The translations under genes were made by a program, and so were the position numbers. Positions 2,031-47,800 of a DNA stretch of 64,000 nt are shown here, one piece after another. The notes under the pieces were generated by a model that saw only the letters and a program-made list of their open reading frames with translations, made no database searches and was not told where the DNA came from. The DNA comes from Heterodontus francisci (Eukaryota): assembly GCF_036365525.1 (NCBI RefSeq), contig NC_090400.1, forward strand, positions 33,010,613 through 33,074,612, given 5' to 3'. Position 1 is the stretch's first letter. The number at the start of each line of letters is the position of its first letter.

Positions 2031-4429
2031 AAGGTAACTGATTCCAAACTTTGCACAGGTCGGCCAACACTCTACCTTGTGGAGTAATAGTTACTGCAGC
2101 ATTAAGCTAACATTACCACAGTGCTGTTGATCATGATGATTAAACTCCAGAGACTGTTGTTAGCAACTGCCTCAGAAAGTCTGACAGCACTGATCTGAGG
2201 CCTCTGTCTTTTTCCATTCTTAATGGCTGTTGTATGACAACTGAAATGAATATCCATTGTAACTGGGTTGCTAGGTGCTGAGCAGAACAGACAAGCTCAT
2301 TTGAAAGATCAAAAAGAAAATTCTTTCATCAGTTTTCAGGCCATTTTAAGCCTGTGCCTCACTATTATTTTAATGAGTCTTTTGGCCAATTGTTTAACTT
2401 TCTTTTTGTCTACAGTAACACTACTTCCATTAGTGGTTTCCCCAATATCTGAGGTGCTCAGGAGAAAAGGAAGACTACCAAAGGATTGTTAAGCTGGTTA
2501 GGATCTCCAAGAGGTGTTTGTGTCCACCTACCAGTACCCTGCACACCACACCTGTAGACGACCCTCACTTTGGTGGATAATTAATACAGGTAGAAGCTTC
2601 AACACTGAAAGTAGATAGTCACAGCAGGCCCAATAGTACAGATGCATGTGAAACATTGACTATAATGCTGGGCAATTCTTCAGCAGGTTCCAAGAATAGT
2701 ATATCATGCTCGATTTATTACTGCATGAAAGAATTCAAACCAAGGTAATCATCAACCGGCAAAGCATGCTTGGTCACACCTGCCAAGATGCACATCTTTA
2801 AATTATTTGCTCTGCTGCTCGAATACACCTTTCAGCTGCTCTGATCTGCACTCAAATCAGTGAATGATAATGCTAATGAGAACACTCAGGAACTTTGAGG
2901 GCGTCTCCTGGCTGCACAGGATGGGTTTTTCAACATTTGTTTGAAATTACCTCGTCAGCAGCAGTGAGGATTGCTGAAGAATCTTGAGCCAGGCAGGTCC
3001 AATGCCTGCCCCACTCATCACCCACTAATTTCACAATGGGGGCCTTCAACTGCCCATCATTTACATATTTCAGGAGCTGTATTTGGGGTGGGATACCCAC
3101 AACACCTAAAAGCTGGCTCCACAAACTTAGCAGTGGGAACAACGCCTGTGCAAAATCATCCCACTGTTAAATTGGTAAGCTTTCACCCATTCTATATCCA
3201 AAAACTTGATGTGATGTGTACGCAGTTTTACCCCACTGGCCTTCAAACTCAGTCTGGCTTACATTTTAAAAGAAGTTATAAAGTGGCATCACAACCAAGT
3301 GAGAGAATCATGTTTTAGGGAGCCTTAGTTTTGTGAAAGGATTTCTAAAAAGGAAGCAGGGTTTAATTGATGTTATAAAAATGCTTGCAGCAATTGTGCA
3401 TTGCAATTTCTGAGTAATAATAGCCCGAAAGGTCAATGCAGCATTTAAATGCAACAGATTCAGAGAGTTGTTGTTAATGCCCAAGTTGTTGCTAATGCTG
3501 AGCAGGACAAAGGTAACACTCAATAAAGATTGTACCAGTAAGCTGCCCACCCAAAAAATAACTATCTGCCGAATGTTCTAGTACATGTGGTGCCCTGTTG
3601 TCTTTTGGGCCCTTATCTTGTTAATGCATGGAGGAGGTTGTTTCCCTTGTGACAGTCAAATCATAAATAATGTTATTTAGAATGCAATTTCCATTGCTGT
3701 CATGTTTGAAATATTCTTTTATTGTCATCATATAATGTCATCTCAGAAAGCACTTTGTACAGATCATTCATTGCAAAATATGTATTTTTAAAATTTGGTT
3801 GCACATAAACTATGGGTGGTAGGCTCCTGTACATTTGAGTTCCAGAGCAGATTTACATGTAATGTAAAGGTGAAAGATACGTCAAAGTATTATAGTGCGA
3901 CTCCAGAAGGCTTTTCAAAATAACTCCAAATTAGACCTATTCACCAATAGGGGGGATTTTAACTGAGAATAAGTGGGAAATTACTTTGGTAAGTTAATTT
4001 CCTACCCACCAGTGGCAACAGAGGACCTTCAGCAAATATAACCATCAACCTCACTTAAATGCCACCAGACCACTTCCCACCCGACTAACTGCTGCCAAAG
4101 ATTGGGTAGCCTTTTTCTGCTTACCAGCTACCAGACAAGTTTCTTCAACTGGGTTTCAAGAGAGTCTCACAGGAAGGAAGCAGGACAATGTCTGGGGCAG
4201 ATGAAGCCACAAATTTCCTTGTGGGGCCTGGGGGAGCACTGATAAGCCTCCTGGTCTCACAAAGGAAGGTTTCCGACATGTTTTGGGCCTCATTGCCCTT
4301 CCCAGCAGCTGCCAATCTGCCTTCAGCTGGTGGAAACTATCCAATCTTCCTTGCTCTCACTGAGGTTAAAATGCAATCGGATCCTATTGGGAGGCAACAA
4401 GACATTCAAGGACTTTGGAGAGGTTGGAG

Positions 4430-18545: not shown

Positions 18546-18825
18546 ACACACCATTAACATACCGTTTGCCTTTGCTCCATAACCTTCTGGTCAGTTAATC
18601 TCTGTGACCCTGTCCTGTTAACACCTTCCCTTTTGTTATCTCTTGCCCTACCCCTGCTTTATTTGTTTAAAACCTGTTACATTTCTAACCTTTGCCAGTT
18701 AAGGGTCACTGACCTGAAACGTTAACTCTGCTTCTCTCTCCACAGATGCTGCCAGACCTGCTGAGTATTTCCAACATTAATTGTTTTTATTTCAGATTTC
18801 CAGCATCTGCGTTATTTTGCTTTTA
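18546..18825 (+). mobile_element. Neptune-like PLE 3' fragment with deleted hammerhead core
   Basis: Collinear with 32580-32859; reads gccagtt-aagggtc where other copies carry ctgatg or ccgaag. Confidence 0.8.
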
Positions 18826-19079
18826 TTTATGTAAGAATGAAGCCATTAGGTTCCCATTGTATTACGACTATTGGTCTCAAACCAATATCTGTAACGTCCC
18901 AATGTCGTCCCTGGTGTGCTGGTCAATATTTATTCCTCAACATCACTAAACAGATTATCTGATCATTACCTCATTGCTGTTCGTGGAACCTTGACTGCCA
19001 TGTTTCCTACACTACAACAGTGACTGCTCTTCAAAAGTTAATTATTAGCTGTAAAAGCACTTTGGAACATCTCAGGTTG

Positions 19080-26714: not shown

Positions 26715-26894
26715 TCAGTTGAATAATATAGAGGTCCAGACTGCAAGTAACGCTGACAGTACTGCAGCATTGAAAGGTATGACAGCTGAATCCGAAACAT
26801 AGACTGTACGACCATTTAGATTTTGAACAGGCCTGAAGTTTAAAACCATGGGTTTTGAATTACTGTAGAAGACAGTTTCAGAAAATGTTTTGAG
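26715..26894 (-). CDS. ca4: CA4-like last coding exon (NFRPVQNLNGRTV plus GPI signal)
   Basis: tgtttcag acceptor; NFRPxQ motif; hydrophobic tail AVLSALLAVWTSILFN; TGA at 26715-26717. Confidence 0.94.
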   Translation of the reverse strand, partial: LKTFSETVFYSNSKPMVLNFRPVQNLNGRTVYVSDSAVIPFNAAVLSALLAVWTSILFN

Positions 26895-29800
26895 CTGAAA
26901 CAATAAAGGTAAATCCCATGTTAAGTTTCCAGATGGCAATAATTTTTATCCGATATATCATTTCTGGAGATTTTTTCCATAAATATAAAGAACAAAGCAA
27001 AAGGTGTATACTCAAGTGGCTTAATCTAAAACTCACAGTGTAAAGACAATAAAACATGGATAAGAAATGGACATTATAACAGATTTAAGGTGATTGATAG
27101 AAGGATTAGAGGGAACATGAGGAAAAACTTTTTCACCCAGAGGGTGGTGGGTGTCTGGAATTCACTGCTAGGAATGGCGGTGGAGCCAGAAACCCTCAAT
27201 TCTTTTAAAAGGTACCTGGACATGCACCTGAAGTGCTGTAACCTGCAAGGCTATGGACCAGGTGCTGGAAGGTGGAATTAGATTGGGTAGCTAGTTTTCT
27301 CAGCTGGCACGGACATGATGGGCTGAATGGCCTCCTTCTGTGGCGTAATTTTTCTATGGTTCTATAACCTGCAAATAAGACCTGCGCCCGAACAAAAACT
27401 TTAGCTAAAAAATCCAATTTAGCAGCCTGTAGAAGCAGAGAGATTTGCTATCACTTGCGGTAATATAACTTTCAGCAATGGTGGAAAATGGACTAAATGA
27501 GATTGGATGGACCTAATACACTTCAATGGCTAAAAAAATTGGACAGAGTACATAATGGGCACCAATCTGATGTTGTCCCCTTCACATCCCCATTGAAGTT
27601 GTAAATTCAGACAAATGTTGAATTGAAATAAATCACATATAGTTTAATGATTTGTACTTTTATCCCAATTATTTGTTCTCATGACAATTCCCCTCAAATG
27701 GAACTGCTTTTTTTCTAAAATTTGAGAACTACTGGCTTCTCCATAACCAGCATCTGTAGCTTCCCCATGAGAATATAATAGGACATACACTGTGACACAA
27801 CAAGAGAGGTGGTTAACTTTCCTTCCTGCCTTGAGATGCAATGCACCATGATATGAATCACTCCACAAATAAAACATTCCAAATTTCAAATGTTGGGCAG
27901 TTATGGCTCCATGTCATGTTATAACATCACTCTATAAAATCAATTTACCTAAATAAATTGGCATTAAAAAATTGATGGAAACTGTATTATCAACTTTTAA
28001 CAATTTTTCATTATTGATACGTTACTAATTGTGGTTGAACAAAATGTTTTAGCACCACATGTCCTCATATCAATATACCAGCAGAGATGTTCAAACATTA
28101 GCTTGAGCAAGTCTACAGAGCTGCAAAATTGGCAGCACCTGTTCTTTACCAACATGAAATCTGTGCAGCATTCAAAGTTAAGGATGGCCTACTACCAAAG
28201 TTTTGCTGGCTTTCCATTGATCTTCTATATCATGAATTCAACAAATGAACTTGCTGTTGTGGGCAGAGAATATAAGCATATCTAGTGCATTACAGATTCC
28301 AAACACAACAAAATTAAGAACTGTCATCAATTGCAGGCTGGAGTAGCTTGCTGTAAAGCTTGCTTTTGGTCATTTTTATCTCCATGCCTTTGCAACCTCC
28401 AGATCCGACTATCCCAACACACACCTGGATGGCCTCCCAACTTCCATAAACTTGAGCTCATTCAAAGCTCTGTTGCCCGTATCCTAACTTGCAGCAAGTC
28501 CTGTTCACACGTCACCCCTGTACTCATTAACTTGCATTGGCTCCTGGTCCAGCAACGACTCAGTTTAAAGGTTGTCATCCTTGTGTTCAAATCCCTCCCT
28601 ATCTCTGTAAACTCCTCCAGCCCTGCAGCTCTCTGAGATCTCTGCATTCCTCCAATTCTGGTTTCTTGTGCATCCTGAATTTTCATTGTTGTGCTATTGG
28701 GAGCCATGCATTCATCTGGGTAGATCTTAAGCTCTGGAATTCCTTCTTTAAACCTCCTTGCTTCTCCACCTTTCTCGCTTCCTTTAAAACACTATCAAAA
28801 ACTACTGTTTTGACCAAGTTTTTGATCACCTGTTCTAACATCTCTTTGTGGCGCAGTGTAAAATTTTGTTCGATAATGTTCCAATGATGTGTCTTGGGAT
28901 GTTTTTACAACATTAAATGCAAGTTGTTGTTGTCATTAGATAACTCCACATTAGATAACTGACAAGGTTCATAAATGAGGGGCTTTGGCAAAGAGACATC
29001 CCCACTATGAGGCTGACTGCCCCGCCAGTATACTCACTGAGAGGTTGGTGGAGGCCACAGCTCGCCCTATTTTCTTTTTGCTACAAATCCACGGTTAGTC
29101 CTGGACATGGGCTAGAGCAAAACGTTCTCTTGCATGCTTTGGTATTTTGCACCATAAATGAGAACCATTTGGTGATGTTTTATAGTCCGCAAGCTTAATC
29201 TACATTGGAAATTTGCTGTCATTTAAGTATCCTTTTCCCTTTCTCACTGTGATCCCAAAAGATATTGTTAAGGCTAAAGCTGGCATTATGACCAACTTGA
29301 ATTAACAATTTGGTCAGGTGGCATTGGACTTCCAAACAATACCTTCAAGATCCTCCCTTGGCCTGGGTATAGCAATAATAACTCATTCATGGCACGCAGC
29401 ACACAATCCTGCTTGTTCACAAGATCCTACTTGTTAGCCCATTGTTCCATATAGTGAGTGCAGCTGACTAGATCTCCAGGTGATGCCACCAACAATCTCA
29501 TGTGCACCAACAGACTGGCTGGTACAGAGAGTTATCAGACATTTATTTTACCAATGAGTTTTGGGTTTGAATCATTCTCAGGCTGATGAGAAAAAAAGAT
29601 TTGTATTTATGTAGCACCTTTCACAAATTCACACCATTCCTAAGTGAATGATGGTCTTTTGATGTGCAGTCACTGTTGTAACATAGGAAACACAGAGCCA
29701 AATTGCACACAGCAAACTTCCATAAAAAGCAATGTGATAATGAGCAGATAATCTGATTTTAGATCAAAAACAAGAAATGCTGGAATCACTCAGCAGGTCT

Positions 29801-32800
29801 GGCAGCATCTGTGGAAAGAGAAGCAGAGTTAAAGTTTCGGGTCAGTGACCCTTCTTCGGAACTGACAAATATTAGAAAAGTCACAGATTATAAGCAAGTG
29901 AGGTGGGGGTGGGGCAAGAGATAACAAAGGAGAAGGTGCAGATTGGACCAGGCCACATAGCTGACCAAAAGGTCACGGAGCAAAGGCAAACAATATGTTA
30001 ATGGTGTGTTGAAAGACAAAGCATTAGTACAGATTAGGTGTGAATACACTGAATATTGAACAGCAGCAAGTGCAAACCTGAAAAAAAAACCTGAAAAAAA
30101 CAGTGGGTAAGCAAACTGAACAAACTAAGATGAAATGAAATCTTAGTTTGTTCAGTTTGCTTACCCACTGTTCTTTTCAGGTTTGCACTTGCTGCTGTTC
30201 AATATTCAGTGTATTCACACCTAATCTGTACTAATGCTTTGGCTTTCAACACACCATTAACATATTGTTTGCCTTTGCTCCGTGACCTTTTGGTCAGCTA
30301 TGTGGCCTGGTCCAATCTGCACTTTCTCCTTTGTTATCTCTTGCCCCACCCCCACCTCACTTGCTTATAATCTGTGACTTTTCTAATATTTGTCAGTTCC
30401 GAAGAAGGGTCACTGACCCGAAACGTTAACTCTGCTTCTCTTTCCACAGATGCTGCCAGACCTGCTGAGTGATTCCAGCATTTCTTGTTTTTGTTTCAGA
30501 TTTCCAGCATCCGCAGTATTTTGCTTTTATCTGATTTTAGATGTTAGGGATAAATATTAGCCAAGACAGTGGAGAGAACCCCCATGCTCTTCTTTAAAAT
30601 AATACTGTGGGATCTGTTGCACCTGCTTGAGATGGCAAATGGGGCTTCAGTTTAATCTGGCATCTGAAAGATGGCACCTCATACAGTGCAGCACTCCCAG
30701 AGTACTGCACTGAAATGTCAGCCTAGATTTTGTGCTCAATTCCCTGGAGTATTCTTTCTCTGCTTAAGAACATAAGTGTCACGAGTTTGGGCAGTTTCAG
30801 GCTGGTCACTGTCCCACAGTACAAAAACTGCCCCTTCCTTTTCCTTCAACTAGATAGAAAAAAAACAAGAAAAAGACCAGTGGAAATTTTCTAAAATAAG
30901 TCCCATCAGATAGTTTACCCAGATCTTCAGAACATAAACCTTACCTGACTCCTGCTGATAGGAATGGCTTCTGCAAATACTGTCCAGATTACTACCTCAT
31001 TACAGGTAGGAGTAGTTAATGAGCCACTATAACGGTAGTATTTACCAAGCTTTTCTTTGTCTAAAATCATTTCATTCAGTGGGAAAGGTGTCAGCAGTGT
31101 TTTGTTGCCTAAGTAAAAATTAGAAAAGTACAAAGAGCTTCAATATTATCTAAAGAAGGGAACTAATAATAAAATACAAGAAATGCTGGATTCACTCAGC
31201 AGGTCTGGCAGCATCTGTGGAAAGAGAAGCAGAGTTAACGTTTCGGGTCAGTGACCCTTCTTCGGAACTGACAAATATTAGAAAAGTCACAGATTATAAA
31301 CAAGTGAGGTGGGGGTTGGGCAAGAGATAACAAAGGAGAAGGTGCAGATTGGACCAGGCCACATAGCTGACCAAAAGGTCACGGAGCAAAGGCAAACAAG
31401 ATGTTAATGGTGTGTTGAAAGACAAAGCATTAGTACAGATTAGGTGTGAATATACTGAATATTGAACATCAGCAAGTGCAAACCTGAAGAAAAACAACCT
31501 GAAAAAAACAGTGGGTGAGCAAACTGAACAAACTAAGATGAACTGAAATAAATACAAAAAAAATTGTAAAAAATGTAAAAAGGAATGCCAAAAAAAAAAG
31601 GAAGAAAAAATAACTAAAAATGAAAGTAAAGTGGGGGGCTGTCATGCTCTGAAATTATTGAACTCAATGTTCAGACCGGCAGGCTGTAGTGTGCCTAATC
31701 GGTAGATGAGATGCTGTTCCTCGAGCTTGCGTTGATGTTCACTGGAACACTGCAGCAATCCCAGGACAGAGATGTGAGCATGAGAGCAGGGGGGAGTGTT
31801 GAAATGGCAAGCAACCGGAAGCTCAGGGTCCTGCTTGCGGACTGAGCGGAGATGTTCCGCAAAGCGGTCACCCAGTCTGCGCTTGGTCTCCCCAATGTAG
31901 AGGAGACCACACTGTGAGCAGCGAATACAGTATACTACATTGAAAGAAGTACAAGTAAATCGCTGCTTCACCTGAAAGGAGTGTTTGGGGCCTGGGATCC
32001 CAGGCCCCAAACACTCCTTTCAGGTGAAGCAGCGATTTACTTGTACTTCTTTCAATGTAGTATACTGTATTCGCTGCTCACAGTGTGGTCTCCTCTACAT
32101 TGGGGAGACCAAGCGCAGACTGGGTGACCGCTTTGCGGAACATCTCCGCTCAGTCCGCAAGCAGGACCCTGAGCTTCCGGTTGCTTGCCATTTCAACACT
32201 CCCCCCTGCTCTCATGCTCACATCTCTGTCCTGGGATTGCTGCAGTGTTCCAGTGAACATCAACGCAAGCTCGAGGAACAGCATCTCATCTACCGATTAG
32301 GCACACTACAGCCTGCCGGTCTGAACATTGAGTTCAATAATTTCAGAGCATGACAGCCCCCCACTTTACTTTCATTTTTAGTTATTTTTTCTTCCTTTTT
32401 TTTTGGCATTCCTTTTTACATTTTTTACAATTTTTTTTGTATTTATTTCAGTTCATCTTAGTTTGTTCAGTTTGCTCACCCACTGTTTTTTTCAGGTTGT
32501 TTTTCTTCAGGTTTGCACTTGCTGATGTTCAATATTCAGTATATTCACACCTAATCTGTACTAATGCTTTGTCTTTCAACACACCATTAACATCTTGTTT
32601 GCCTTTGCTCCGTGACCTTTTGGTCAGCTATGTGGCCTGGTCCAATCTGTACCTTCTCCTTTGTTATCTCTTGCCCAACCCCCACCTCACTTGTTTATAA
32701 TCTGTGACTTTTCTAATATTTGTCAGTTCCGAAGAAGGGTCACTGACCCGAAACGTTAACTCTGCTTCTCTTTCCACAGATGCTGCCAGACCTGCTGAGT

Positions 32801-35800
32801 GAATCCAGCATTTCTTGTTTTTGTTTCAGATTTCCAGCATCCGCAGTATTTTGCTTTTATAATAATAAAATACCTTTTGCTAACTACAGCCTTGAAATAA
32901 TACCGTACGAAGATCAATGCATGAATGCAAAATAGCTCATGTTAAACTCCTTTGTTCACTATTTTAAAAAAGCTACTAACCAACTTACTTTAATGAGCTA
33001 ATAATTCCTTTAAAAGGGAGGGGGGGGACAAAGAAATTTAATATCAATATTTTGAGTGTTGTCTCCATTTGGCAGAATTTCAATGTTGCGATTAATTGTT
33101 ATATAATGTAAACTCTGTGAGGGACACTGTAACCTCAAAAAAACGGATGGGTTTGAATCAGGTGGGATGTCAAAATTTTAAGAATCTCAAACCTGACTCT
33201 AACTTGCCTCCACTCAGCCCACTTTTAATGGAGGTGTGATGGAGGGTCAGGCAACCAACCTGCTCCCTGGAGGCGTGCTGCCCGTTTAAATATTGTAAGG
33301 TAGGGTGTCACATATTTAATCTATCTTCCAGGTTTAATCCTGGTCATCTGGGTTTCCTGAGCCTCGGAAATCCGGCAGCTAAAGGCTGGGGAGGACTGCT
33401 CATAGAAGAGGTAAGTGTCATTACTGTACAGCTTCTGGGTAAGGAGGAGCACAGCATCAGACCCCTAACCCCGCCCCTCCCACCCTCCCCCCAGAATTCA
33501 AAGTTCCCATTCCCCGGAAAACAAAGACAACCCCGCAATCGGACTACCCCCGGAATCGAGCATCAGACTCCCTGCCCAGGAGCAAAGATCAGACCCCTCC
33601 TCCCTTTCTGAACATTCCCCACCTGAAAGGGAGCCAAGCCTGTCAATCAGGCTGGCTTCCAGGTAGGGAACCTGCTTTGAAAAAAGGACTCACACTGTTC
33701 ATTAAAATTAGTCTGTGTTTCCTGGCCAAAACTCCTCCTCCACCACTCAAAAGGCCCACCCAAGTAAATAACGGGGCTTGTCCTTTGCAGCAAGTGACTG
33801 AAAGAGGGAGCAGTTATATTTACTGCATTATATACAATGCCTGTTACTACAGCAGCATTATAGTATTTCAGGTAACAGAGAATGCGCTTTTGAAAATAAT
33901 ATGTCTTCTCAGCAACTTAGCCCTCCTGATAATGCTACTTCATCATAAGAATGACACCATTTAACTTCAGCAGTGAGAACTGCAGCAGGTTTTAACACTT
34001 GGAATTTTTTGCTGCCTCACATTGCTTACCAACGGATCAAAACAAGAGCAAAGGGAAAAAGAGGGAAACACAAATTATTCTTTTTAATGAAACTATTCTT
34101 TTTTCTGTATTGTTCTTCCCTTTTCTCCTGAAGGTGCTGACTGTTGTATTTTATGAAATCAGCTGACTATCAGACTGTCTCAAAGGCAAAGGCGTTCACA
34201 TCTGGACTAATTGACAACATTTTTTGTTTGTTCAGATTGAATAACCTGGAAAAATGAAAGCAAAAAGGATTCGTAAAAAGGGAAAAAAAATAAGGAGAGC
34301 AATGGAAGAAAATAAATTAAATGCGGATAAATGAAAAGAGACAGAATGGAATATACTGAAATAAAAACAGGAAATGCTGGAAACACTTAGCAGGTCAGGC
34401 AGCGTGTGTGGAGAGAGAAACAGTTTCAGGTCAGTGACCTTTCATCAGGATACAAGTGATCAACCCAAAACGTTAACTGTTTCTCTCTCCACACATGCTA
34501 CCTGACCTATTGTATCATAGAATCATAGCAACTTGCAGCACAATAATAGCAATTAAAGGGATTATTAGAGTTGGCAATAGAAAATGAAAATCAGGGCCAG
34601 AAATAGCTGGGGAGGGGGGAGGGTGGAGGGAAGTTGGGGATACGGAGGGGGTGGGGAGTGGGGGGTGGCGGAGGCGGGGATCGTTGGAGAGAAGCAGAGA
34701 AGAAAGCAAGAGATAATTGGAAGGGATGGGAGATGTAATCAGGGAAGAGATAGTTGAATTTTTTATATTGTTATTAATACTTACCAGTTTGTTGAACTGT
34801 TTTCAGAACATCGATCAGCTTTTTCATGTTTGAATTGTCTTCAGGTGATTCCTATAAAGAGTTAAAGAGATAAATATAAGCCATGCTGTTGGGGAGGAGA
34901 AGTTGGCAGACCAGGGGTGAGCACTCCTGTTATTCCTGCCCCACAGCAGTGCTGTGAAGGCACATACCTTCTCCCCAAAGTTATCCTCACCTCACATCAG
35001 CTGCCAGGTTCCTGAGGCCTGGGAAACCCTGCCGTACGCTGTAAAACCTGCAAAGCAGGTTAAATCAGAGGCTGCCAGCCTCATTAAAATATCTGAATTG
35101 CCAACCCACCCCGTGGGAGCCGGTTGGCTTCCCGCCTTTTGTCTCGCCTCCATTAAACCCAAGTGGGCAGGTTGGGGGGGGGGGGGGGGGGGCGGGTTCC
35201 CAATATGCTCAAATTTTGCCTGATTTAACTCCTCATCCTGACCCAACCCCACACGCTCACTCATATTAATATTCCCTCCGGTGAGTAGAAAATCTAGTCC
35301 CTGATATCTAGGCACAGACATGAAGAATGACAACTTGGGGAAATATCTGTGGGAGGCTGTGCTCTTTGGAGCATCCCCCATTGTGCACCCCAACTTCAGA
35401 AGAGGAGCAGGTGCATACTATCAGCTTCATTATCAGTTAAGCTTTAAGCTAAGTCGTACAAAAGAATTTCACAAACATCTGCAGAGCACCATATTTGATA
35501 AATAATGAATGCAATACTATCTAACAGACATCTATTGTGATTTATTTCAATCTATTTTTCGAACATTAAATATAATTCCATAGGATTGCTTCTGTGAAAA
35601 TATTTGAGCTGTTTTCCTCTGTCACAACTTGCTGAGTGATTCCTCCCAGTCGTAGTGTAAATGCTGAGGAACATTACTCACTACAAAGAAGAATCCCAGC
35701 ACGGCCAGACCATCAGGATGTGTTAGGGCATCTTCCAAGGAATTGTATTTTTGATTCTGGTGGACTACATGCAACTGCAGAAAGCAAATTCATGATGGTT

Positions 35801-38800
35801 ACAAATCACACAGAATTCTACATAACAATTATAGTTTTAATAAGCTTACAGAAAGATGGGTCCTAAATCACTGTGTATATAAATTTATAGTGCATAAGAT
35901 AATGGGAGCGTTGTTGATGTAATCTTATGTTAATATTTGGGGATTTCTTGGACTGCAAAATTGATCCAGGAAGGATTTTGTGTGCACTAAGCAGTCAACA
36001 GAGAGGGCAATCCTCGTAGGTATGGGAGAGGAGGCCACTCCTTCTATCTGCATGAAGTAGGGAAGGATTTTGTACTTCCAAAGTAATAATTCACTCACTT
36101 GAATTAATTTGGCTTGGTAAATATGAAGTGAACATGAAATATAGAATCAGAACACAACAAAAAGAAGTGCTGGCTCAAGCATAACTTTGAAGTTACCATA
36201 TCAATGATTTTCCTACGTAATGACCTGAAAGCAAAGCAGATACGCAGGATAACAACAGAGTGACTTTTTTTGCATTCGTTTCTGAGCCAGCATTTATTGC
36301 TCATTCCTAATGGCCCTTGAGAAGGTGGTGGTGAGCTGCCTTCTTGAATCGCTGCAGTCCATGTGGGGTAGGTACACCAACAGTGCTGTTAGGAAGGGAG
36401 ACCGAGCGACAGTGAAGGAACGGCGATATGGTTCCAAGTCAGGATGGTGTGTGGCCTTGAGGTGAACTTGCAGGTGGTGGTGTTCCCATGCATCTGCTGC
36501 CCTTGTCCTTCTAGGTGGTAGAGGTCACGGGTTTGGAAGGTGCTGTCTAAGGAGCCTTGGCGCGTTGCTGCAGTGCATCTTGCAGATGGTACACATTGCT
36601 GCCACTGTGCGTCAGAGGTGGAGGGAGTGAATGTTGAAGGTCGTGCATGGAGTGCCAATCAACAGGGCTGCTTTGTTCTGGATGGTGTCGAGCTTCTTGA
36701 GTGTTGTTGAAGCTGCACTCATCCAGGCAAGTGCAGAGTATTCCATCACACTCCTGACTTGTGCCTTGTAGATGGTGGACAAGCTTTGGGGGAGTCAGAA
36801 GGTGAGTTACTTGCTGCAGGATTCCTAGCCTCTGACCTGCTCTTGTAGCCACGGTATTTATATGGCTACTCCAGGTCAGTTTCTGGTCAATGGTAACCCC
36901 CACGATGTTGATAATGGGGGATTCAGCGATCGTAATGCCATTGAATGTCAAGGGGAGATGGTTAGATTCTCTCTTGTTGGAGATAGTCATTGCCTGGCAC
37001 TTGTGTGGCGCGAATGATACTTGCCACTTATCAGCCCAAGCCTGGATATTGTCCAGGTCTTGCTGTATTTCTACACGGACTGCTTCAGTATCGCAGGAGT
37101 CGCGAATAGTGCTGAACATTGTGCAAACATCAGCGAACATCCCCACTTCTGACCTTATGATTGAAGGAAGGTCATTGATGAAGCAGCTGAAGATGGTTGG
37201 GCCTAGGACACTACCCTGAGGAACTCCTGCAGTGATGTCCTGGAGTGCAGATGATTGACCTCCAACAACCACAACCATCTTCCTTTGTGCTAGGTGTGAC
37301 TCCAACCAGTGGACAGTTTTCCCCCTGATTCCCAATGACTCCAGTTTTGCTAGGGCTCCTTGATGCCACACTCTGTCAAATGCCACCTTGATGTCGAGGG
37401 CAGTCATTTTCACTTCACCTCTTGAGTTCAGCTCTTTTGTCCATGTTTGAACCAAGGCTGTATTGAGGTCTGGAGCTGGGTGGCCCTGGCAGAACCCAAA
37501 TTGAGCATCACTGAGCAGGTTATTGCTAAGCAGGTGCTGCTTGATAGTACTGTCGATGATACCTTTGATCACTTTACTGATGATTGAGAGTAGACTGATG
37601 GGCCGGGTTAGACTTGTCCTGCTTTTTGTGTACAGGACATACCTGGGCAATTTTCCACATTGCAGGGTAAATGCCAGTGTTGTAGCTGTACTGGAACAGC
37701 TTGGCTAGGGGCAGCGCAGGTTCTGGAGCACAGGTCTTCAGTACTATTGGCGGAATGTTTTTAGGGCCCATAGCCTTTGCAGTATCTAGTACCTTCCGTC
37801 ATTTCTTGATATCATGTGGAGTGAATCAAATTAGCTGAATTTGAAGAAGTGCCACTGACCTGAAACGTTAACTCTGCTTCTCTCTCCACAGATGCTGCCA
37901 GACCTGCTGAGTATTTCTAGCATTTCTTGTTTTTATTTCAGATTTCCAGCATCTGCAGTATTTTGCTTTTAAATTAGCTGAAGACTGGCATCTGTGGTAC
38001 TGGGGACTTCAGGAGGAGGCCGAGATGGATAACCAACTCGGCACTTCTGGCTGAAGATTGTTGCAAATGCTTCAGTCTTATCTTTTGCACTGATGTGCTG
38101 GGCTCCCCCATCATTGAGGATGGGATATTTGTGGAGCCACCTCCTCCAGTTAGTTGTTTAATTGTTCACCACCATTCACGACTGGATGTGGCAGAACTGC
38201 AGAGCTTAGATCTGATACGTTGGTAATGGGATCGCTTGGCTCTGTCTAATGCATGCTGCTTACACTGTTTGGCACGCAAGTAGTCCTGGGTTGTAGCTTC
38301 ACTAGGTTGACACCTCATTTTGAGGTATGCCTGGTGCTGCTCTGGGCATGCCCTCCTGCACTCTTCATTGAACCAATGTTGATCCCCCGGCTTGATGGTA
38401 ATGCTAGAGTGGGGGATATGCCGGGCCATGAGGTTACAGATTGTGGTTGAGTACAATTCTGCTGCTGCTGATGGCCCACAGCACCTCTTGGATGCCCAGT
38501 TTTGCATTGCTAGATCTGTTCGAAATCTATCCCGTTTAGCATGGTGATAGTGCCACACAACATGATGGAGGGTATCCTCAATGTGAAGGCGGGACTTCGT
38601 CTCCACAAGGACTGTACTGTGGTCACTCCTACCAATACTGTCATGGACAGATGCACCTGCGGCAGGCAGAATGGTGAAGACACGGCCAAGTATAGTTTTC
38701 CCTCTTGTTGGTTCCCTCACCAGCTGCCGCAGACCCAGTGTAGCAGCTATGTCCTTTAGGAGTCGGCCAGCTTGGTCAGTAGTGGTGCTACTGAGACACT

Positions 38801-38818
38801 CTTGATGATGGACATTGA

Positions 38819-38849
<31 letters not shown>

Positions 38850-41800
38850 GCAGTGTACATTCTGTGCCCTTGCCACCTTCAGTGCTTCCTCCAAGTGCTG
38901 TTCAACATGGAGGAGTACTGATTCATCAGCTGAGGTGGTAACCAGCAGGAGGTTTCCTTGCCCATGTTTGACCTGATGCCATGAGACTTCATGGGGTCTG
39001 GAGTCGATGTTGAGGAGTCCAGGGAAAGTCCTCCCCACAGTATACCACTGTGCCGCCGTCTCTGATGAGTCCGTCCTGCTGGTGGACAGGACATACTCGG
39101 AGATGGTGATGGCGGTGCCTGGGACATTGTCTGTAAGGTATGATTTGGTGAGTATGACTATGTCAGGCTGTTGCTTGACTAGTCTGTGGGACAGCTCTCC
39201 CAACTTTGGCACAAGCCCCCAGATGTTAGTAAGGACTTTGAAGGGTCGACAGAGCTGGGTTTGCCATTGTCGTTTCTGATGCCTAGGTCGATGTCAGCTG
39301 GTCCATCCGGATTCATTCCTTATTGACTTTGTAGCGGTTAGATGCAACTGAGTGGCTTGCTAGGCCATTTCAGAGGGCATTTAAGAGTTAACTACATTGC
39401 TGTGGGTCTGGAGTCACATGTAGGCCAGACCAGGTAAGGACAGCAGATTTCTTTCCCTAAAGGGCATTAGGGAACATCAGTTGTCCACTACAGCTGCTCT
39501 CTGTGTAATATTCCAGATATTACTGGCAAAAACAAAGCCTATAATAATGATTCCAACTCCAGCAGTAAATCATATTAACCCCAGCATGTTCATCAATTTT
39601 CAAGAGAGCAAGGAAAAATAGAGGTGGAGTGTGCAGAAATTAATTTAAGAAATTAGGAAATCTTATATTCTAGCTCTTGTAAACTGGATTATAATCTGAT
39701 TTTATTTTCTGGACATTTTGATAAATTGAAGGTATACATGTCTTACCTCCATGGGGTACTGTTTCCCATCTATTGTATGCTCTGACCCAGGTTCAGACAC
39801 TGTTCCCCAATGATAATGGAGCTGAATTGCCTTGTATGTATTTGGAAGATCTCCACCTTTAATGGTGATTTGTCCATTTACTGTCACCTGGACTATAAAC
39901 AAGGAACAAATTATGTTGACCTTCTACAGAACATTGGTTAGACGACACTTGGAACACTGTGCACATTTCTGGTCCCCATATTATAAAAAGTATATCGAGT
40001 TATTGAAATAGGTGCAAAAAAGATGTACAAAGGTGATACCAGAACTGAGAGGCTATACCTATCAGGAAAGATTGAACAGACTGGGGCTCTTTTCTCGAGA
40101 AAAAAGAAGGCTAAGAGGTGACCGAATAGAGGTCTTTAAAATTATGTTCGGGTTTAATAGGGTAGACATAGAGAAAAGGTTTTCACTTTCGGAGGAGTTC
40201 AAAAACTAGGAGTCTTAAATATAAAATAGTTGCTATTAAATCAATAAAGGATTCAGGAGAAACCTCTTTACCCACAGAGTGGTAAGCATGTGGAACTTAC
40301 TACCATGTGGAGTAGTTTAGTTGAATAGCACAGATATATTCAAGGGGAGCTGGATAAACACATAAAGGAGAAAGGAATAGAAGGTTAAGATGATAGGGTT
40401 AGATGGAGAAGGTTGGGAGGAGGCTCACGTGGAGCATAAACACCAGCACAGACCTGTTGTGCCAAATAACCTGTTTCTGTGCTGTATGTTCTATGGAAAA
40501 AAAAATCAAATTTTCACACCAATGTTAACAGGGCAGGAATTGGACTGCCAAGTTTTTCAGCCTTTGCTTCTTCTGACCTTTTGTTCCTAATGTAAATTCT
40601 TCAAGACTCTGTGCCTCTGGCAAAGGCTTGGATGCAGACAGAGTTTGCAATCCCATATAGCTGCAAGCAAGGCCCCAGTGGGAGCATGGGGTCTTGCAAC
40701 ATTTATGTCTATAATTTTACTTGACAGAATTAACCTGAAGGGAGAACAGATTTTGCCAAAGTGCAGCAAAGCTCCGCTCCAACATCACTAAAGTGTATTC
40801 TACTGCACAAACTTTGACATTTTTGAGAGTTGGTCTCATACCAGTACCTGGAGACTGCGGTTATCTTGCCCAATGACAACAGTCAGTTCATGCACGGTTA
40901 CGTGTACACACAAAGCTCGCCCCACCAGCTTCTGAACGCTGGTTACATTCTAATGTTAAGGAGAGATACATTAAACATTTTTTTAGTTATCTTTAAAATT
41001 TTCCCTGCTAGATGAATGGGCTAACCACCAGTAATCTTGGCTATATCCTACAGATGGTATGACAGTTAACCAGTGCACAGCTGTCACTTGCTCGTGGTTT
41101 TGCTCTTCTTACTTTTACATATGGTTTGCACTCTGATCACTGACATAACTTGCCACTTATTTTACCAATTTTGTGCCAATGTATGAGGAGAGATTGCGTA
41201 GGATGTACCTATATTGTCTGGAGTTTAGAAGAAAAGGTGACTAAAACATATAAGATTCTGAGAGGGCTTGACAAGAGTAGATGATGAGAGGCTGTTTCTC
41301 CTGACTAGAGAGTCTAGAACAAGGGAGCATAGTCTCAGGATAAGGGATCAGCCTTTTAGGACTGGGATGAGAACAGATTTTTTTCACTCAGAGGGTTGTG
41401 AATCTTTGGAATTCTCTATCCCAGAGGGCTATAGATGCTCACTCATTCAGTGTATTCAAGGCTGGGATCAATAGATTTTTGGACTTGAAGGCAATCAAAT
41501 GATATGGGAATTAGAGGGGAAAGTGGAGTTGAGGTTAAAGATCAGCCATGTGTTCTGATTGAATGGCAAAGCAGGCTCAAGGGGCCATATAGCCTACTGC
41601 TGTTCATATCTCTTATGTTCTTGTGTAATGTGTTCTGAAACCACTTTGTGTTGATGCAACAGCAGTAGTATCAGTGGCCCATTAGATCAGATGGAAGAAT
41701 CGTAAATGAATCATAGAATTAAGAATGTTACAGCACAAAATGAAGCCATTTAACCCATTGTGCCTGTGCCATGTGCTTGAAAGTGCCATCCAATTTGTAC

Positions 41801-44800
41801 CACTCCGCTGATTTTTCTGCAACTCCACAAATTTTTATGCTCCTTTTAAAGTATTTATCCAATTCCCTATTGAAAGTTATTATTAATAATGTCAAACTTT
41901 GCAGATGACACCAAACCCGGAAATGTAGCAAACAGTGAAGAGGACAGTAACAGACTTCAGAAGGAGATCGACTGGTGAAATGGGCAGATGAAATTTAACT
42001 CAGAGAAATGTGGAACAATTCATTTTGGTAAGAAGAATGAGGAGAGGCAATATAAGCTAAATGGTACAATTTTAAAGTGGGTGCAGGAATAGAGAGACCT
42101 GGGGGTTAAATACACAAGTCTTTGATGGGCTCAGGACAGGTTGAGAAAGCTGTTAAAAAAGGAATATGGGAGCTTTGGCTTTATAAATAGCAGCATAGAG
42201 TGCAAAAAAAGGAAGTTATGCTAAACCTTTATAAAGCACTGGTTAGGCCCCAGCTGGTGTTATTATTATTGAACCTGCTTGCACCTCCCTTTCAGGCAGT
42301 GCATTCTAGTGTCGTTCTGTAAAGCAATCTTTGCTCATGTCGCCACTGGTTCTTTTGCCAGTTACCATACATCTGGGTCCTCTGGTTACAGATGCTTTTG
42401 CCACTGAAAGAGTTTCTTCTGATTTAATCCATCGAAACCCTTCAAAATTTTGATTACCTCTAACAACTCTCCTCTTAACCGTCTCTGTTCTGGAGTTTCT
42501 CTAGTCTTCCCACATGACTGAAGACCTTTATCTCTGGTAATGATTCTAGCAAATCTCCTCTGAACCCCTCTTAATGCCTTAATTGACATCCTTCCTAAAA
42601 TCTGATGCCCAGAATAGGGCACAATACACCACCTTTAACCTCAGTGCTTCATAAAGGTTTAGCATAACCTCCTTCTTTTGCACTCTATGCCGCTATTTAC
42701 AAAGCCTAGGCTCCCATATGTCTATTTTAACAGCTTTCTCAACCTGTCCTGAGACCGTCAAAGACTTGTGTATTTAACCCCCAGGTCTCTCTATTCCTGC
42801 ACCCACTTTAAAATTGTACCATTTTGTTTATATTGCCTCTCCTCATTCGTCTTACCAAAATAAATTGTTCCACATTTCTCTGAGTTAAAATTCATCTGCC
42901 CATTTCACCAGTCGATCTCCTTCTGAAGTCTATTACATCCTCTTCACTGTTTGCTACATTTCCGGGTTTGGTGTCATCTGCAACGTACAACATTATACCC
43001 TCTATACCCAATTCCAATCATTAATATAGATCAAAAAGAGCAGTGGTCCCAACACCCACCCGTAAGGACACCAGTGCACACTTCCCTCCAATCTGAAAAA
43101 TAACTGTTCATCACTACTGTCCACTGTCCAGTCTCTTCCCACCTACATCCATGACACTTCTGGCACCCTACGTCATTTCGACAGTTTCCTTGCCCTAACT
43201 ATCTCCTCTTCACAATGGGTGTCCACCACCACCCTCCTCCACCTGGCTGAACTTATTCTCACACTGAACAACCTCTCCTTCAACTCCATTCACTTCCTCC
43301 AAATAAAAGGTGTTGCTATGGGTACCCGCATGGGTCCTAGCTATACCTGTCTTTTTGTGGGATATGTCGAATATTCCTTGTTCCAGTTCTACTCAGGCCC
43401 CCTACCCCAACTCTTTTTCCGGTACATTGATGATTGTATTGGTGTCACTTCCTGCCCTTGTGCCGAACTGGAAAACTTCATCAATTTTGCTTCCAATTTC
43501 CACTCTTCTCTCACCTTCACATGATCCATCTCCGACACTTCCCTTCCCTTCCTCGACTTCTCTGTCTCCATCTCTGGGGATAGGCTGTCCACTAGTATTT
43601 TTTATAAGCCCACTGACTCCCTGGGCTACCTTGACTACACTTCCTCACACCCAGCCTCCTAAAAGGACTCCATTCCATTCTCCCAGTTTCTCCGTCTCCG
43701 ACGCATCTGTTCTGATGACGCTACCTTCCACGACAGCGCTTCTGACATGTCTTCCTTTTTCTTCAACCGAGGATTCCCCTGCACTGTAGTTGACAGGGCC
43801 CTCAACCGTATCCGACCCATTTCCCATACTTCTGCCCTCATCCCTTCCTCTCCTTTCCAGAACTGTGACAGGGTTCCCCTTGTCCTCACTTTCCACCCCA
43901 CCAGCCTCCACATCCAAAGGATCGTCCTCCGCCATTTCCGTCACATTCAGCATGATGCCACCATCAAACACATCTTCCCCTTCCCTCCCCTGTCAGCATT
44001 CCAAAGGGACCGTTCCCTCCGTGACACCCTGGTCCACTCCTCCATCACCCCGACACCTCTTCCCTTTACCACTGCATTTTCCCATGCAACCGCAGGAGGT
44101 GTAATACCTGCCCTTTTACCTCCTCTCTCCTCATCATCCAAGGCCCCAAACACTCCTTCCAGGTAAAGCAATGATTTACTTGTACTTCTTTCAATTTAGT
44201 ATACTGTATTCACTGCTCACAGTGTGGTCTCCTCTACATTAGGCGACCGCTTTGCAGAACACCTCCGCTGGGTCCGTAAGCATGATCCCGAACCTCCAGT
44301 TGCTTGCCGTTTTAATACTCCATTTTGTTCCCATGCCAACATTTCTGTCCCCAGCCTCTTGCAGTGTTCCAGTGAACATCAATGCAAGCTCGAGGAACAG
44401 CACCTCATTTTCAGATTAGGCACTCTACAGCCTTCTGGACTCAATATTGAGCTCAATAATTTCAGACCATGATCCCCATTATTTATTGTTTATTTATTAT
44501 TTTAATTTTTTTACATATATATATATTCCTCTTTTTTAATTATTTCTTTATTTATTTTTAAACATGTGCTAGTCTTAAACTTATTTTCATGTTTTTGCTT
44601 TCGTACTGATCTGTTCATTTTTCTGCCATTAGTACTCTGTTTGGACTCGTGATTTCTCTTTCCCTACAACTATTTAGCACTCCATTTGCATTCTGTTCCA
44701 AGACATCTGTCATTTAATCTCTCCCCTCTCTGTCCAATCACAGTCCTTCCTTCTAGTTCTCCTTCCCCTCCTCCCCCTTTCACTTGCTCAAAGACTGTTA

Positions 44801-47800
44801 CATTTCTAACTTTTGCCAGTTCTGATGAAGGGTCGCAGACCTGAAATGTTAACTCTGTTGCTCTCTCCACAGATGCTGCCAGACCTGCTCAGTATTTCCA
44901 GCACTTTCTGTTCTCATTTCAGAGTTCCAGCATCCACAGTATTTTGCTCTTATTTGTTGACCACCACCGTCTGCTTTCAGTCCCTTCAACTATTTTGTAT
45001 CCAAGCAGACACTGCCTCTTTACTCCCATGGGCTGCAATTTTGCTAACCAGTCTATTATGTTGAATATTATTTATCAAGTGGAATGAATTTTCAGAACTT
45101 ACTTGAGTGACCGTCGTTTTGTATAGCCCATTGATTATCTGTAACAACACGATCGTAACCCTCAAAGATAATGGCATCCAATCTGCTTTCATATTTAGCT
45201 TTCTCGGTTACAATGTTGATGGGTGACTGCTTCTGCATTCCACATATTTGATAGTGATTCTTCCAGGTGCTGGGTTCTAGAAAGGATGATACAAGTCAGT
45301 TAGCAGTGCACAAAGTGTATTTCTATGTAACAGTGTTAAATGTTAGCATGGCTCAGAGAAAGCACTATCCCCCCACATAAAGAGTTTGTAGGTTTCAAGA
45401 CCTACAACAAGATTTGCCCACCTAAGCTCGGCTGATACCTCAGCAGATTACAAAGGGACTGCTGCACAGTCAGAGGTGTTGTCTTTTGCTGAGATATTAA
45501 ACCAGGATTGTACAACATACGGCCTGCGGGCCAGGATCCGGCCTGCCAAAGGTTTCCATCCAGCCTGTGGATGCAAGCTGTACTTGGGGCTGTTCCTCAT
45601 CCTCCCAGGGCTTCATGACTGGAGATGGGAAATTTCCCATTGTCATCTTCTTGCAGAGAGGCCTTTTTAAAAACATCGCCCTGTCAGTTTCACAGCTGAC
45701 AGCTGCTGAAGCAGGAAGGCACTTCCCAACTTTGACAGATTCAGGGTTTTCCGACTTTTTTTTAAAAGCCCACCGGAAAACCCCAAATCTATCCGATGTT
45801 GGGAGGTGCATTCCTGCTTCGGCGGTTGTCAGCTGTGAAACTCAGCGCAACGTTTTTAAACAAACCGATCGAGCACAAAGCTGCTGTGCTGAGTGCTCCC
45901 ACTCAGAGTAACTCACAGAGAGAGGGGGAGAGAGGGGAGAGAAAGAGGGGAGAGGGGTGGTGAAAACAGAGAGGGGGGAAACAGAGAAGGGGGAATAGAG
46001 AGAGAGGGGTGAACAGAAAGAGTGGGGGACAGAGAGAGGGGGGACAGAGAGAGAGAATGAGGGGGGGAAACAGAGAGAGTGGGGTGAAAACAGAGAGGGG
46101 AAACAGAGAGAGGGGAACAGAAAGAGAGAGGGGGAAACAAAGAGAGAGCAGAACAGAGAGAGAGGGGGAACAAGGAGGGAGAGAGGGAAACAGAGAGAGA
46201 GGGCAAAACAGAGGAAAAAGGGGGCAACAGCGAGAGAGGGAGGGAAAACAGAGAGGGGGAACAGAGAGAGTGAAGGGGGACAGAGTAAGGGGGGACAGAG
46301 GGGGAGGACAGAGTGAGGGGGGGGACAAAGTGAGGAGGGACAGAGGGGGGAGGGACAGAGGGGGGAGAGTGAGAGGGGGGTATGGGGGGAGAACACAGAG
46401 AGTGAGGACGACAGTGAGGGGGGGGGAACAACACAGAAAGGGGGCAACACAGAGAGAGAGAGACAGAAACAGAGGGAGAGCTCAAGATCACTCCTGACAG
46501 ATGGATATCTATCCAGAATACTCTGCAACACTACATCAAGTGTGCAGCAGAGATTGACTACTTATGCAAGCAAAAACAATGCCAGGTATGTCACCAAATC
46601 AGTTTTCAATATAGTGACAAGAAAGTAAGTCAATAAATTAGTCTTCTTATTTAAAGCTTCTTCACAAAAATGCACATTTGTTGTTGTTTTTATTAGTAAG
46701 ATCAATTTTTAATGCCTTTATCTTTTGAAAATTGCTCGCCAGCCCCCTGGGATGAGCAAAAATCGTAGTACAACCCTATATTAAACCAAAGGTCCATCTG
46801 TCTGCTCAAGTGAATGTAAAAGATCCTATAGCAATATTTGAAAAAGGGCATGGAGTCTGGGTTAACATTTATCCCTCAACCGTTTATCTCATTGCTGTTT
46901 GGAAGACTTTGATGTGCACAAATTGGCAGCTGCATTCCCCTACAAAACAACAGTGGTTGCACTTCAAAAAAGTCATTTTGTCGCTGTGAAGTGATTTGGG
47001 ACACTTCATAGCTACTTACTCAAAACCCCAAAAAACACACTAAATTTAATAAAACAAAGTCAATTATAGGGTTTGAGAGTCAACAGTTTACAACATTGTA
47101 GAAAGAGTTAGGTAAATATCTGAAGAAAAATATTAAAGGATTTGAGAAAAGAACAGAAAAATGTAACTCATGTAAATGGCTGGAGTTAGCAAAGGAACTG
47201 GTAATTGTACAGATATGATGGGGCAAAATGTTCTCCTTCTCATTTACATTTCAATTGTTCAAATTGTTCAAATTGTTCAAATTGACTGGCCATCCCATTA
47301 GTTATAGCATTGGAGGATTTAATTCCCAATTAAGAGAAATACTTTAACTTTACCTAAATAGGTGAAAATATAGAAAATTATATTATAATGGCAGACAGTT
47401 GTATATCAGGAACTTTAACATGACAGTTTGCTGGAGGTGGAGTTCTATTTTTTGTTTTTCACTGCCAGCAGATCACAAGATCTTGAACTTTATCTGGAAC
47501 GATATTAAACTGGAAATAATTGTGATGTGCAATCCTTTAAAATATTGGCATCAAATTCCTCTATCAACTAGCTTAATGAAGGTGTTAACATGTTGACCTT
47601 AAATGGGTTAATGCTTCCATTTAACTGGCAGAATGAGGAATTTGATACAAACATATAAACTGCATATGCACTAGCGTTGCTCACAATAATTTCCAGGCTA
47701 TTCTTGCACACATCAAAACAGGAAAAATATTGAAAGGAAAAAGAGAGCAACAGCTGCAAGTTAAGCCAAACTGAGGGGGCTGTTAGAGTCTGAACTGAAT

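Follow-up and report, generated by a model that had tools for sequence, protein, structure and literature searches.

How can a single retroelement insertion leave behind two copies of the same sequence, joined head to head with nothing between them? The question is raised by a 1.64-kb palindrome in Heterodontus francisci, located in the window analysed here (64,000 nucleotides of contig NC_090400.1, positions 33,010,613 to 33,074,612; coordinates below are those of the window). The left arm (31177..31997, minus strand) and the right arm (31998..32817, plus strand) are 821 and 820 bp long. Aligned over 821 columns they differ at two sites, a run of T10 versus T9 near 32395 and C versus T at 32650, with both differences (the T9 and the T) private to the right arm. 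The arms meet at 31997/31998 in the sequence cctggga|tcccagg with a spacer of 0, the axis itself (31997..31998) being a self-complementary AT native to both arms, and a 30-mer laid over the axis has a single occurrence in the 6.0-Gb genome. One 14-bp target-site duplication (TSD), TAATAATAAAATAC, encloses the whole and is found within the window only at 31164 (31164..31177) and 32860 (32860..32873), both on the plus strand. Only the right arm carries a tail of 41-42 nt (32818..32859, plus strand), one base being common to tail and TSD at each end. The first-pass annotation, made from the sequence of the window, had described arms of about 821 bp with no spacer and about two differences, a single 14-bp TSD and a tail confined to the right arm, and the arm alignment and the position of the TSD bear out this description.

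In three runs of one sample, short-read contigs cross the left junction (30723-31201) as well as the right one (from 32838). A 43-44-nt contig, likewise from three runs of one sample, passes the axis by 15 nt (31970-32012), and a contig end 15 nt past the axis is the shape expected of a 31-mer graph at a zero-spacer palindrome. The sample checked in this way may be the assembled one, and hence does not represent an independent individual. In a capture library from another sample (run X11) 14 reads lie at the axis, of which none is seen to extend across, and coverage of the flanks is nil; no empty-site allele appeared among the joints listed, a list crowded with family copies. As far as can be tested with the contigs of one sample, the palindrome is not an assembly artefact. 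Raw reads with a single arm, as from a fold-back read or misassembly, or arms with separate TSDs had been named at the outset as results that would refute the first-pass reading; what was found was one TSD, and contigs covering the two outer junctions and also the axis.

The arms belong to a family whose full copies are arranged as tandem units of 3,295 bp, their intact ORF of 916 aa combining reverse transcriptase (RT) and GIY-YIG endonuclease, and whose 63-nt tail region has 7,604 exact copies in the genome. Against Pfam, the full protein gave RVT_1 with an E of 1.2e-5 and GIY-YIG with an E of 0.0018, both falling short of the curated cut-off. Its motifs comprise DKG at 320, YIDD, a CX4CxxC linker (CNRRRCNTC at 782) and a CCHH GIY-YIG domain with two cysteines between GIY and YIG (VVYC-IRC...LLYIG, AEH, CHF). 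In the accessible part of PMC8557442, a CX2-5CxxC linker between RT and endonuclease is the mark of the Neptune and Nematis clades, whose elements likewise have RT followed by a C-terminal GIY-YIG domain with CCHH, the linker and DKG. Because the linker is present, Penelope and Poseidon are excluded by that definition and, judged by these motifs, the family is a Neptune/Nematis-type Penelope-like element (PLE). The layout of EN+ PLEs was also found, with partial tandems (pLTR), an inverted 5'-truncated copy, a tail and a TSD. Unlike Neptune/Nematis PLEs, the family showed no microsatellite targeting that stood out in an informal look at sampled flanks.

Of the 3,295-bp unit, the palindrome locus retains just the final ~865 nt. 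Its left arm is the reverse complement of unit ~2431-3252/3257, the right arm covers the same interval, and the tail ends at unit 3294/3295. The left arm is identical over 821 nt to four other copies (L003-L006), two of which belong to a locus whose ORF is intact, and the right arm has just two private changes; the insertion is very young. One insertion, very recent and truncated at its 5' end, of an active Neptune/Nematis-type PLE accounts for the palindrome, a by-product without coding capacity of its own, and the initial reading of one recent Penelope-like insertion is supported by the one TSD and by the one template behind both arms. A C-terminal GIY-YIG fragment of the element ORF, without RT and without a start, runs from 31997 to 32353 (plus strand; mirror 31642-31998, minus strand) and scores 22.8 bits against Pfam PF01541 (cut-off 22.6), so the GIY-YIG frame first noted in each arm stands. 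The hammerhead noted alongside it is retained as a candidate minimal hammerhead-like motif, read by eye at 32725..32761 (plus strand; mirror 31233-31269, minus strand); an Rfam scan reported no hammerhead, and its miRNA hits were below gathering scores and reflect only hairpins. The canonical hammerhead core has U4, where the candidate has C, and the minimum-energy fold did not give the motif. The motif's architecture, including an unpaired base 5' of stem II, is as in the accessible part of PMC4209133, where hammerhead pairs on opposite strands are reported 100-700 bp apart. Hammerhead cleavage was considered as the source of 5' ends and rejected: 22/44 plain 5' ends lie at unit 3158-3163, and the predicted cut is near 3192.

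To see how common head-to-head arms are, we took a census of 90 loci with one tail per locus, which together account for 92 tail matches among the first 100 in the contig C1 listing (8 matches were left out). An inverted arm lies directly at the 5' end in 46/90 sampled tail ends, and the suggestion that this family routinely makes inverted-arm insertions thus proved correct. Three of the other 44 loci are internal tandem tails, two of these being ambiguous. The 46 inverted copies have an exact TSD of 13-16 nt in 33 cases and a 10-nt match in one, while the exact TSD search returned none in 12. Both arms exceed 500 nt in 8/46 and the axis has zero loop in 4/46, with 48 zero-loop junctions genome-wide at one self-complementary 6-mer. 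In L109 the axis is loop-free but symmetric over only 76 nt, and the junction is complex, with a 76-nt fold-back piece. None of the 46 strictly matches the window palindrome in being long, exactly symmetric and spacerless. The head-to-head shape is routine for the family, and the window palindrome is its uncommon extreme.

From end points read in sequence, we consider it probable that the two arms began as separate cDNAs, primed on the two target strands after nicking and linked head to head thereafter. In such twin priming on one RNA, the GIY-YIG endonuclease would nick both strands ~14 nt apart, the distance displayed by the TSD, and each 3'-OH would prime RT on the same RNA, at unit ~3295 and ~35 nt upstream (~3253-3271). 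Because the two start sites would lie ~35 nt apart, exactly one arm would receive a tail. The RTs would halt at neighbouring positions (in the window palindrome, at one and the same base), the cDNA 3' ends would be joined via the AT, and fill-in would yield, in order, TSD, tailless arm, tailed arm and TSD.

Several features of the end points are consistent with this scheme. Arm pairs come from one template: across 18 pairs, subfamily-diagnostic sites disagree just once, where ~42 discordances would be expected of unrelated copies. In 40/46 inverted copies the end of the tailless arm falls at unit 3253-3271, and plain (non-inverted) copies (L029, L030, L177, L179 and L180) end at unit 3260-3265; since plain copies use this end as well, it behaves as a priming site rather than as the run-out point of a copy-back. 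The five bases beyond both nicks have one common profile, GTT(T/G)G-like across 32 census loci. Moreover, a matrix trained on one nick side gave the opposite side a higher score than any of 10,000 flank draws, and this was repeated on 22 independent loci. Both arm ends therefore lie at sites used by plain insertions and both nicks are alike, as twin priming predicts, though the common motif demonstrates two cuts and not two priming events. All five zero-loop axes (4/46 and the window palindrome) fall on a native self-complementary 2- or 6-mer, for which we estimate a chance of roughly 1 in 1,000 (taking 1/4 each). As pairing of two identical ends requires a self-complementary site, these axes fit joined cDNA ends; in favour of the scheme, too, 18 of the 46 junctions lack any overlap. 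In long copies the 5' ends of the two arms lie within 50 nt of each other in 8/20 (1.6 expected; 7/14 without six complex loci), an outcome equally natural for a cDNA that snaps back and for two RTs stopping together. Where the arms are offset by 6-45 nt, the tailless arm leads in 14 and trails in 4 (p 0.03; p 0.03-0.06 overall, on small numbers), which faintly hints at two enzymes in file.

The first-pass annotation had instead proposed that a single tailed cDNA was copied back on itself. This fits the window locus in outline, the tailless arm being no longer than the tailed one and the arms identical apart from the two private changes; moreover, self-priming was proposed in the accessible part of PMC3846280, so the idea is not new for head-to-head Penelope palindromes. 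Across the family it is contradicted. The tailless arm is longer in 21 of the 46 inverted copies, the tailed arm in 9, and 16 are within 4 nt (17, 7 and 16, respectively, without the six complex loci); since a copy cannot exceed its template in length, folding back one tailed cDNA fails. It should also leave a loop of at least 3 nt, and the loop is 0 here and in 4/46; a zero-loop axis is not a priming hairpin. The commonest counted single junction is the palindrome of stem II of the putative ribozyme, with 386 copies, and the first 30 listed of these, picked blind to the tail, have exactly one tail in 30/30. The tails are split 15:15 between the would-be folded arm and the other, which again argues against fold-back of a tailed cDNA, as does the fixed second end common to plain insertions. 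Copy-back from the tailless arm is opposed by the inability of a tailless template to supply the tail. Fold-back, whether by copying a tailed cDNA almost to its start or by self-priming on an antisense template, survives only with a free hairpin and a tail cut from either arm at integration, and we regard it as improbable.

Twin priming may also have been combined with snap-back, such that a long cDNA is copied after folding back and the new strand pairs with a short second cDNA, which gives the other end. This route accounts for the one template, the near-equal 5' ends, the fact that either arm can be the longer and the one tail, and it fits the overlap of at least 2 nt at 23 of the 46 junctions as well as the 386 junctions at a native hairpin. 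The latter site is the putative ribozyme's own hairpin, a natural place for snap-back, and counts against twin priming without it; so do the fold-back piece at the L109 junction and the fact that twin priming is read from end products rather than from intermediates. However, snap-back has no direct route to zero-loop axes (4/46, the window palindrome and the 48 at one site), although with non-templated addition of C it could produce the window axis, and no route to the junctions of L072 and L114, in which the two arms extend to a common 5' hot spot and 1-2 bases are added. We judge the combination possible but doubtful. Host replication or repair might have made or perfected the palindrome after insertion by template switching or arm-to-arm conversion, the latter of which would likewise yield arms of one template. 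In this case, however, the flanking DNA is not inverted and one TSD is intact, the left arm matches other young copies exactly and the end points are fixed family-wide, making such an origin very improbable. Hardly credible is an assembly or fold-back-read artefact, or a pair of separate insertions: in its favour, a single sample was checked, possibly the assembled one, and against it stand the contigs from three runs at both outer junctions and the axis, the one TSD, arms that differ at two sites and by the tail, and a form that is routine in the family.

Twin priming on one RNA, the reading we prefer, has a precedent in LINE-1, where both nicks prime on one RNA and an inverted 5' part lies inside one TSD. 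In LINE-1 the second primer starts far upstream, so that the inverted part is not a second copy of the first; in the Penelope-like family, with ~35 nt between the starts, each arm repeats the other. According to the accessible part of PMC11167929, a Poseidon-clade protein (PAc) cuts and extends both target strands in vitro and its RT starts at two internal sites bounding the tail; the protein is a predicted dimer, and hammerhead cleavage is not needed. The two internal starts and the cutting and extension of both strands would be shared with the family studied here, but PAc is of another clade and that part of the paper does not tie the two start sites to inverted insertions. In the available text of PMC3846280, inverted pLTRs lie inside one TSD with a one-sided tail and head-to-head junction palindromes are read as self-priming, while that of PMC8557442 gives the head-to-head layout with a one-sided tail as typical, ascribes the tail to endonuclease resolution and calls undefined how PLEs form inverted repeats and tails. 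With the EN+ PLE units of these two sources our family shares the inverted copy in one TSD, the one-sided 30-40-nt tail, the junction palindromes and the partial tandems. Compared with the text of PMC3846280, inverted copies are here counted (46/90), arm geometry argues against self-priming, and the window arms are unusually long and exactly symmetric. A literature search, with most subscription papers (e.g. the 2005-2006 PLE reviews) and supplements outside its scope, found no paper proposing twin priming for Penelope inverted arms.

Because its structure is textbook for PLEs, the window locus is no surprise. It serves as a clean example from a young family with thousands of copies. The end points of that family speak to how inverted repeats and tails arise, and the novel case rests on these family-wide statistics rather than on the window locus. 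If true, twin priming on one RNA would link the two in vitro start sites to genomic shapes, and it is testable by an existing assay. We further propose, tentatively and as a generalisation with somewhat less than even prospects, that the default integration of PLEs uses a two-enzyme complex at a symmetric nicked site, with two RTs moving in file on one RNA from starts fixed at a distance of ~35 nt. Three features would be footprints of this step, namely the inverted pseudo-LTR, the tail on one side only and the TSD of 14-16 nt, and the element would keep supplying an animal genome with perfect palindromes by the thousand, of which some are long and have no spacer. The family also provides a natural series for palindrome stability.

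A second head-to-head insertion of the same family, slightly older, lies 0.6 kb from the palindrome at 29751..30542, with a 14-bp TSD at 29751 and 30529, arms starting from unit 2880 and 2890, an 8-nt loop and the tail on the right. A host exon of a carbonic anhydrase gene occupies 30945..31108 (minus strand). The TSD of the palindrome begins 55 nt upstream of the splice acceptor of this exon, placing the palindrome in an intron. We note that the carbonic anhydrase pre-mRNA contains an 820-bp perfect hairpin just upstream of a splice acceptor.

The window holds a second head-to-head insertion of the same Penelope-like family as the large palindrome, located at window 29751-30542 and flanked by a separate 14-bp TSD. 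The two arms are separated at the axis by a loop of 8 nt, and the tailless arm exceeds the tailed arm by 10 nt. Both palindromes lie within a carbonic anhydrase gene on the minus strand (window 26840-45229; exon motifs near 45229, 39824, 31108-30945 and 26840), whose nearest solved relatives are CA4/CA12/CA14 and PTPRG domains. The large palindrome is found upstream of one splice acceptor, with its TSD 55 nt away, while the second sits in the next intron. Because the two occupy neighbouring introns, the carbonic anhydrase pre-mRNA would be expected to form two long hairpins.

The family is likely active, since the tandem copies L031, L032 and L033 are 99-100% alike and retain an intact 916-aa ORF. 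Older copies within the window (18546-18826, 34356-34446, 37843-37971 and 43126-44953; 79-92% alike) have no adjoining inverted arm. Among plain copies, sampled tail ends without an inverted arm directly at the 5' end, 22 of 44 start at unit 3158-3163 (window ~32723-32728), on the 5' border of the hammerhead-like motif. Roughly 29 nt upstream of this point there is a TATA-like box, and the sequence at the start resembles an initiator or, alternatively, a 3' splice site. This position is likely the RNA 5' end of the element.

Elsewhere in the genome, locus L038 (G000:C4:34926446-34932544) is a head-to-head insertion of the family with arms of ~2.9 kb that are 99% alike; with an asymmetric centre of ~225 nt, the whole constitutes a 6-kb near-palindrome. 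Additional element pieces in either orientation occur at complex junctions of L076, L080, L109, L113, L167 and L168, suggesting repeated template jumps. One inverted insertion is present three times, spaced 16-44 kb apart, at G000:C1:14822400-14886500 (L164, L165), which is a host segmental duplication. The window also contains an inverted pair of a non-family repeat (41886-42981; ~340 nt each, 93-94% alike, 400 nt apart), whose translation resembles the 3' end of a CR1/L2-type LINE.
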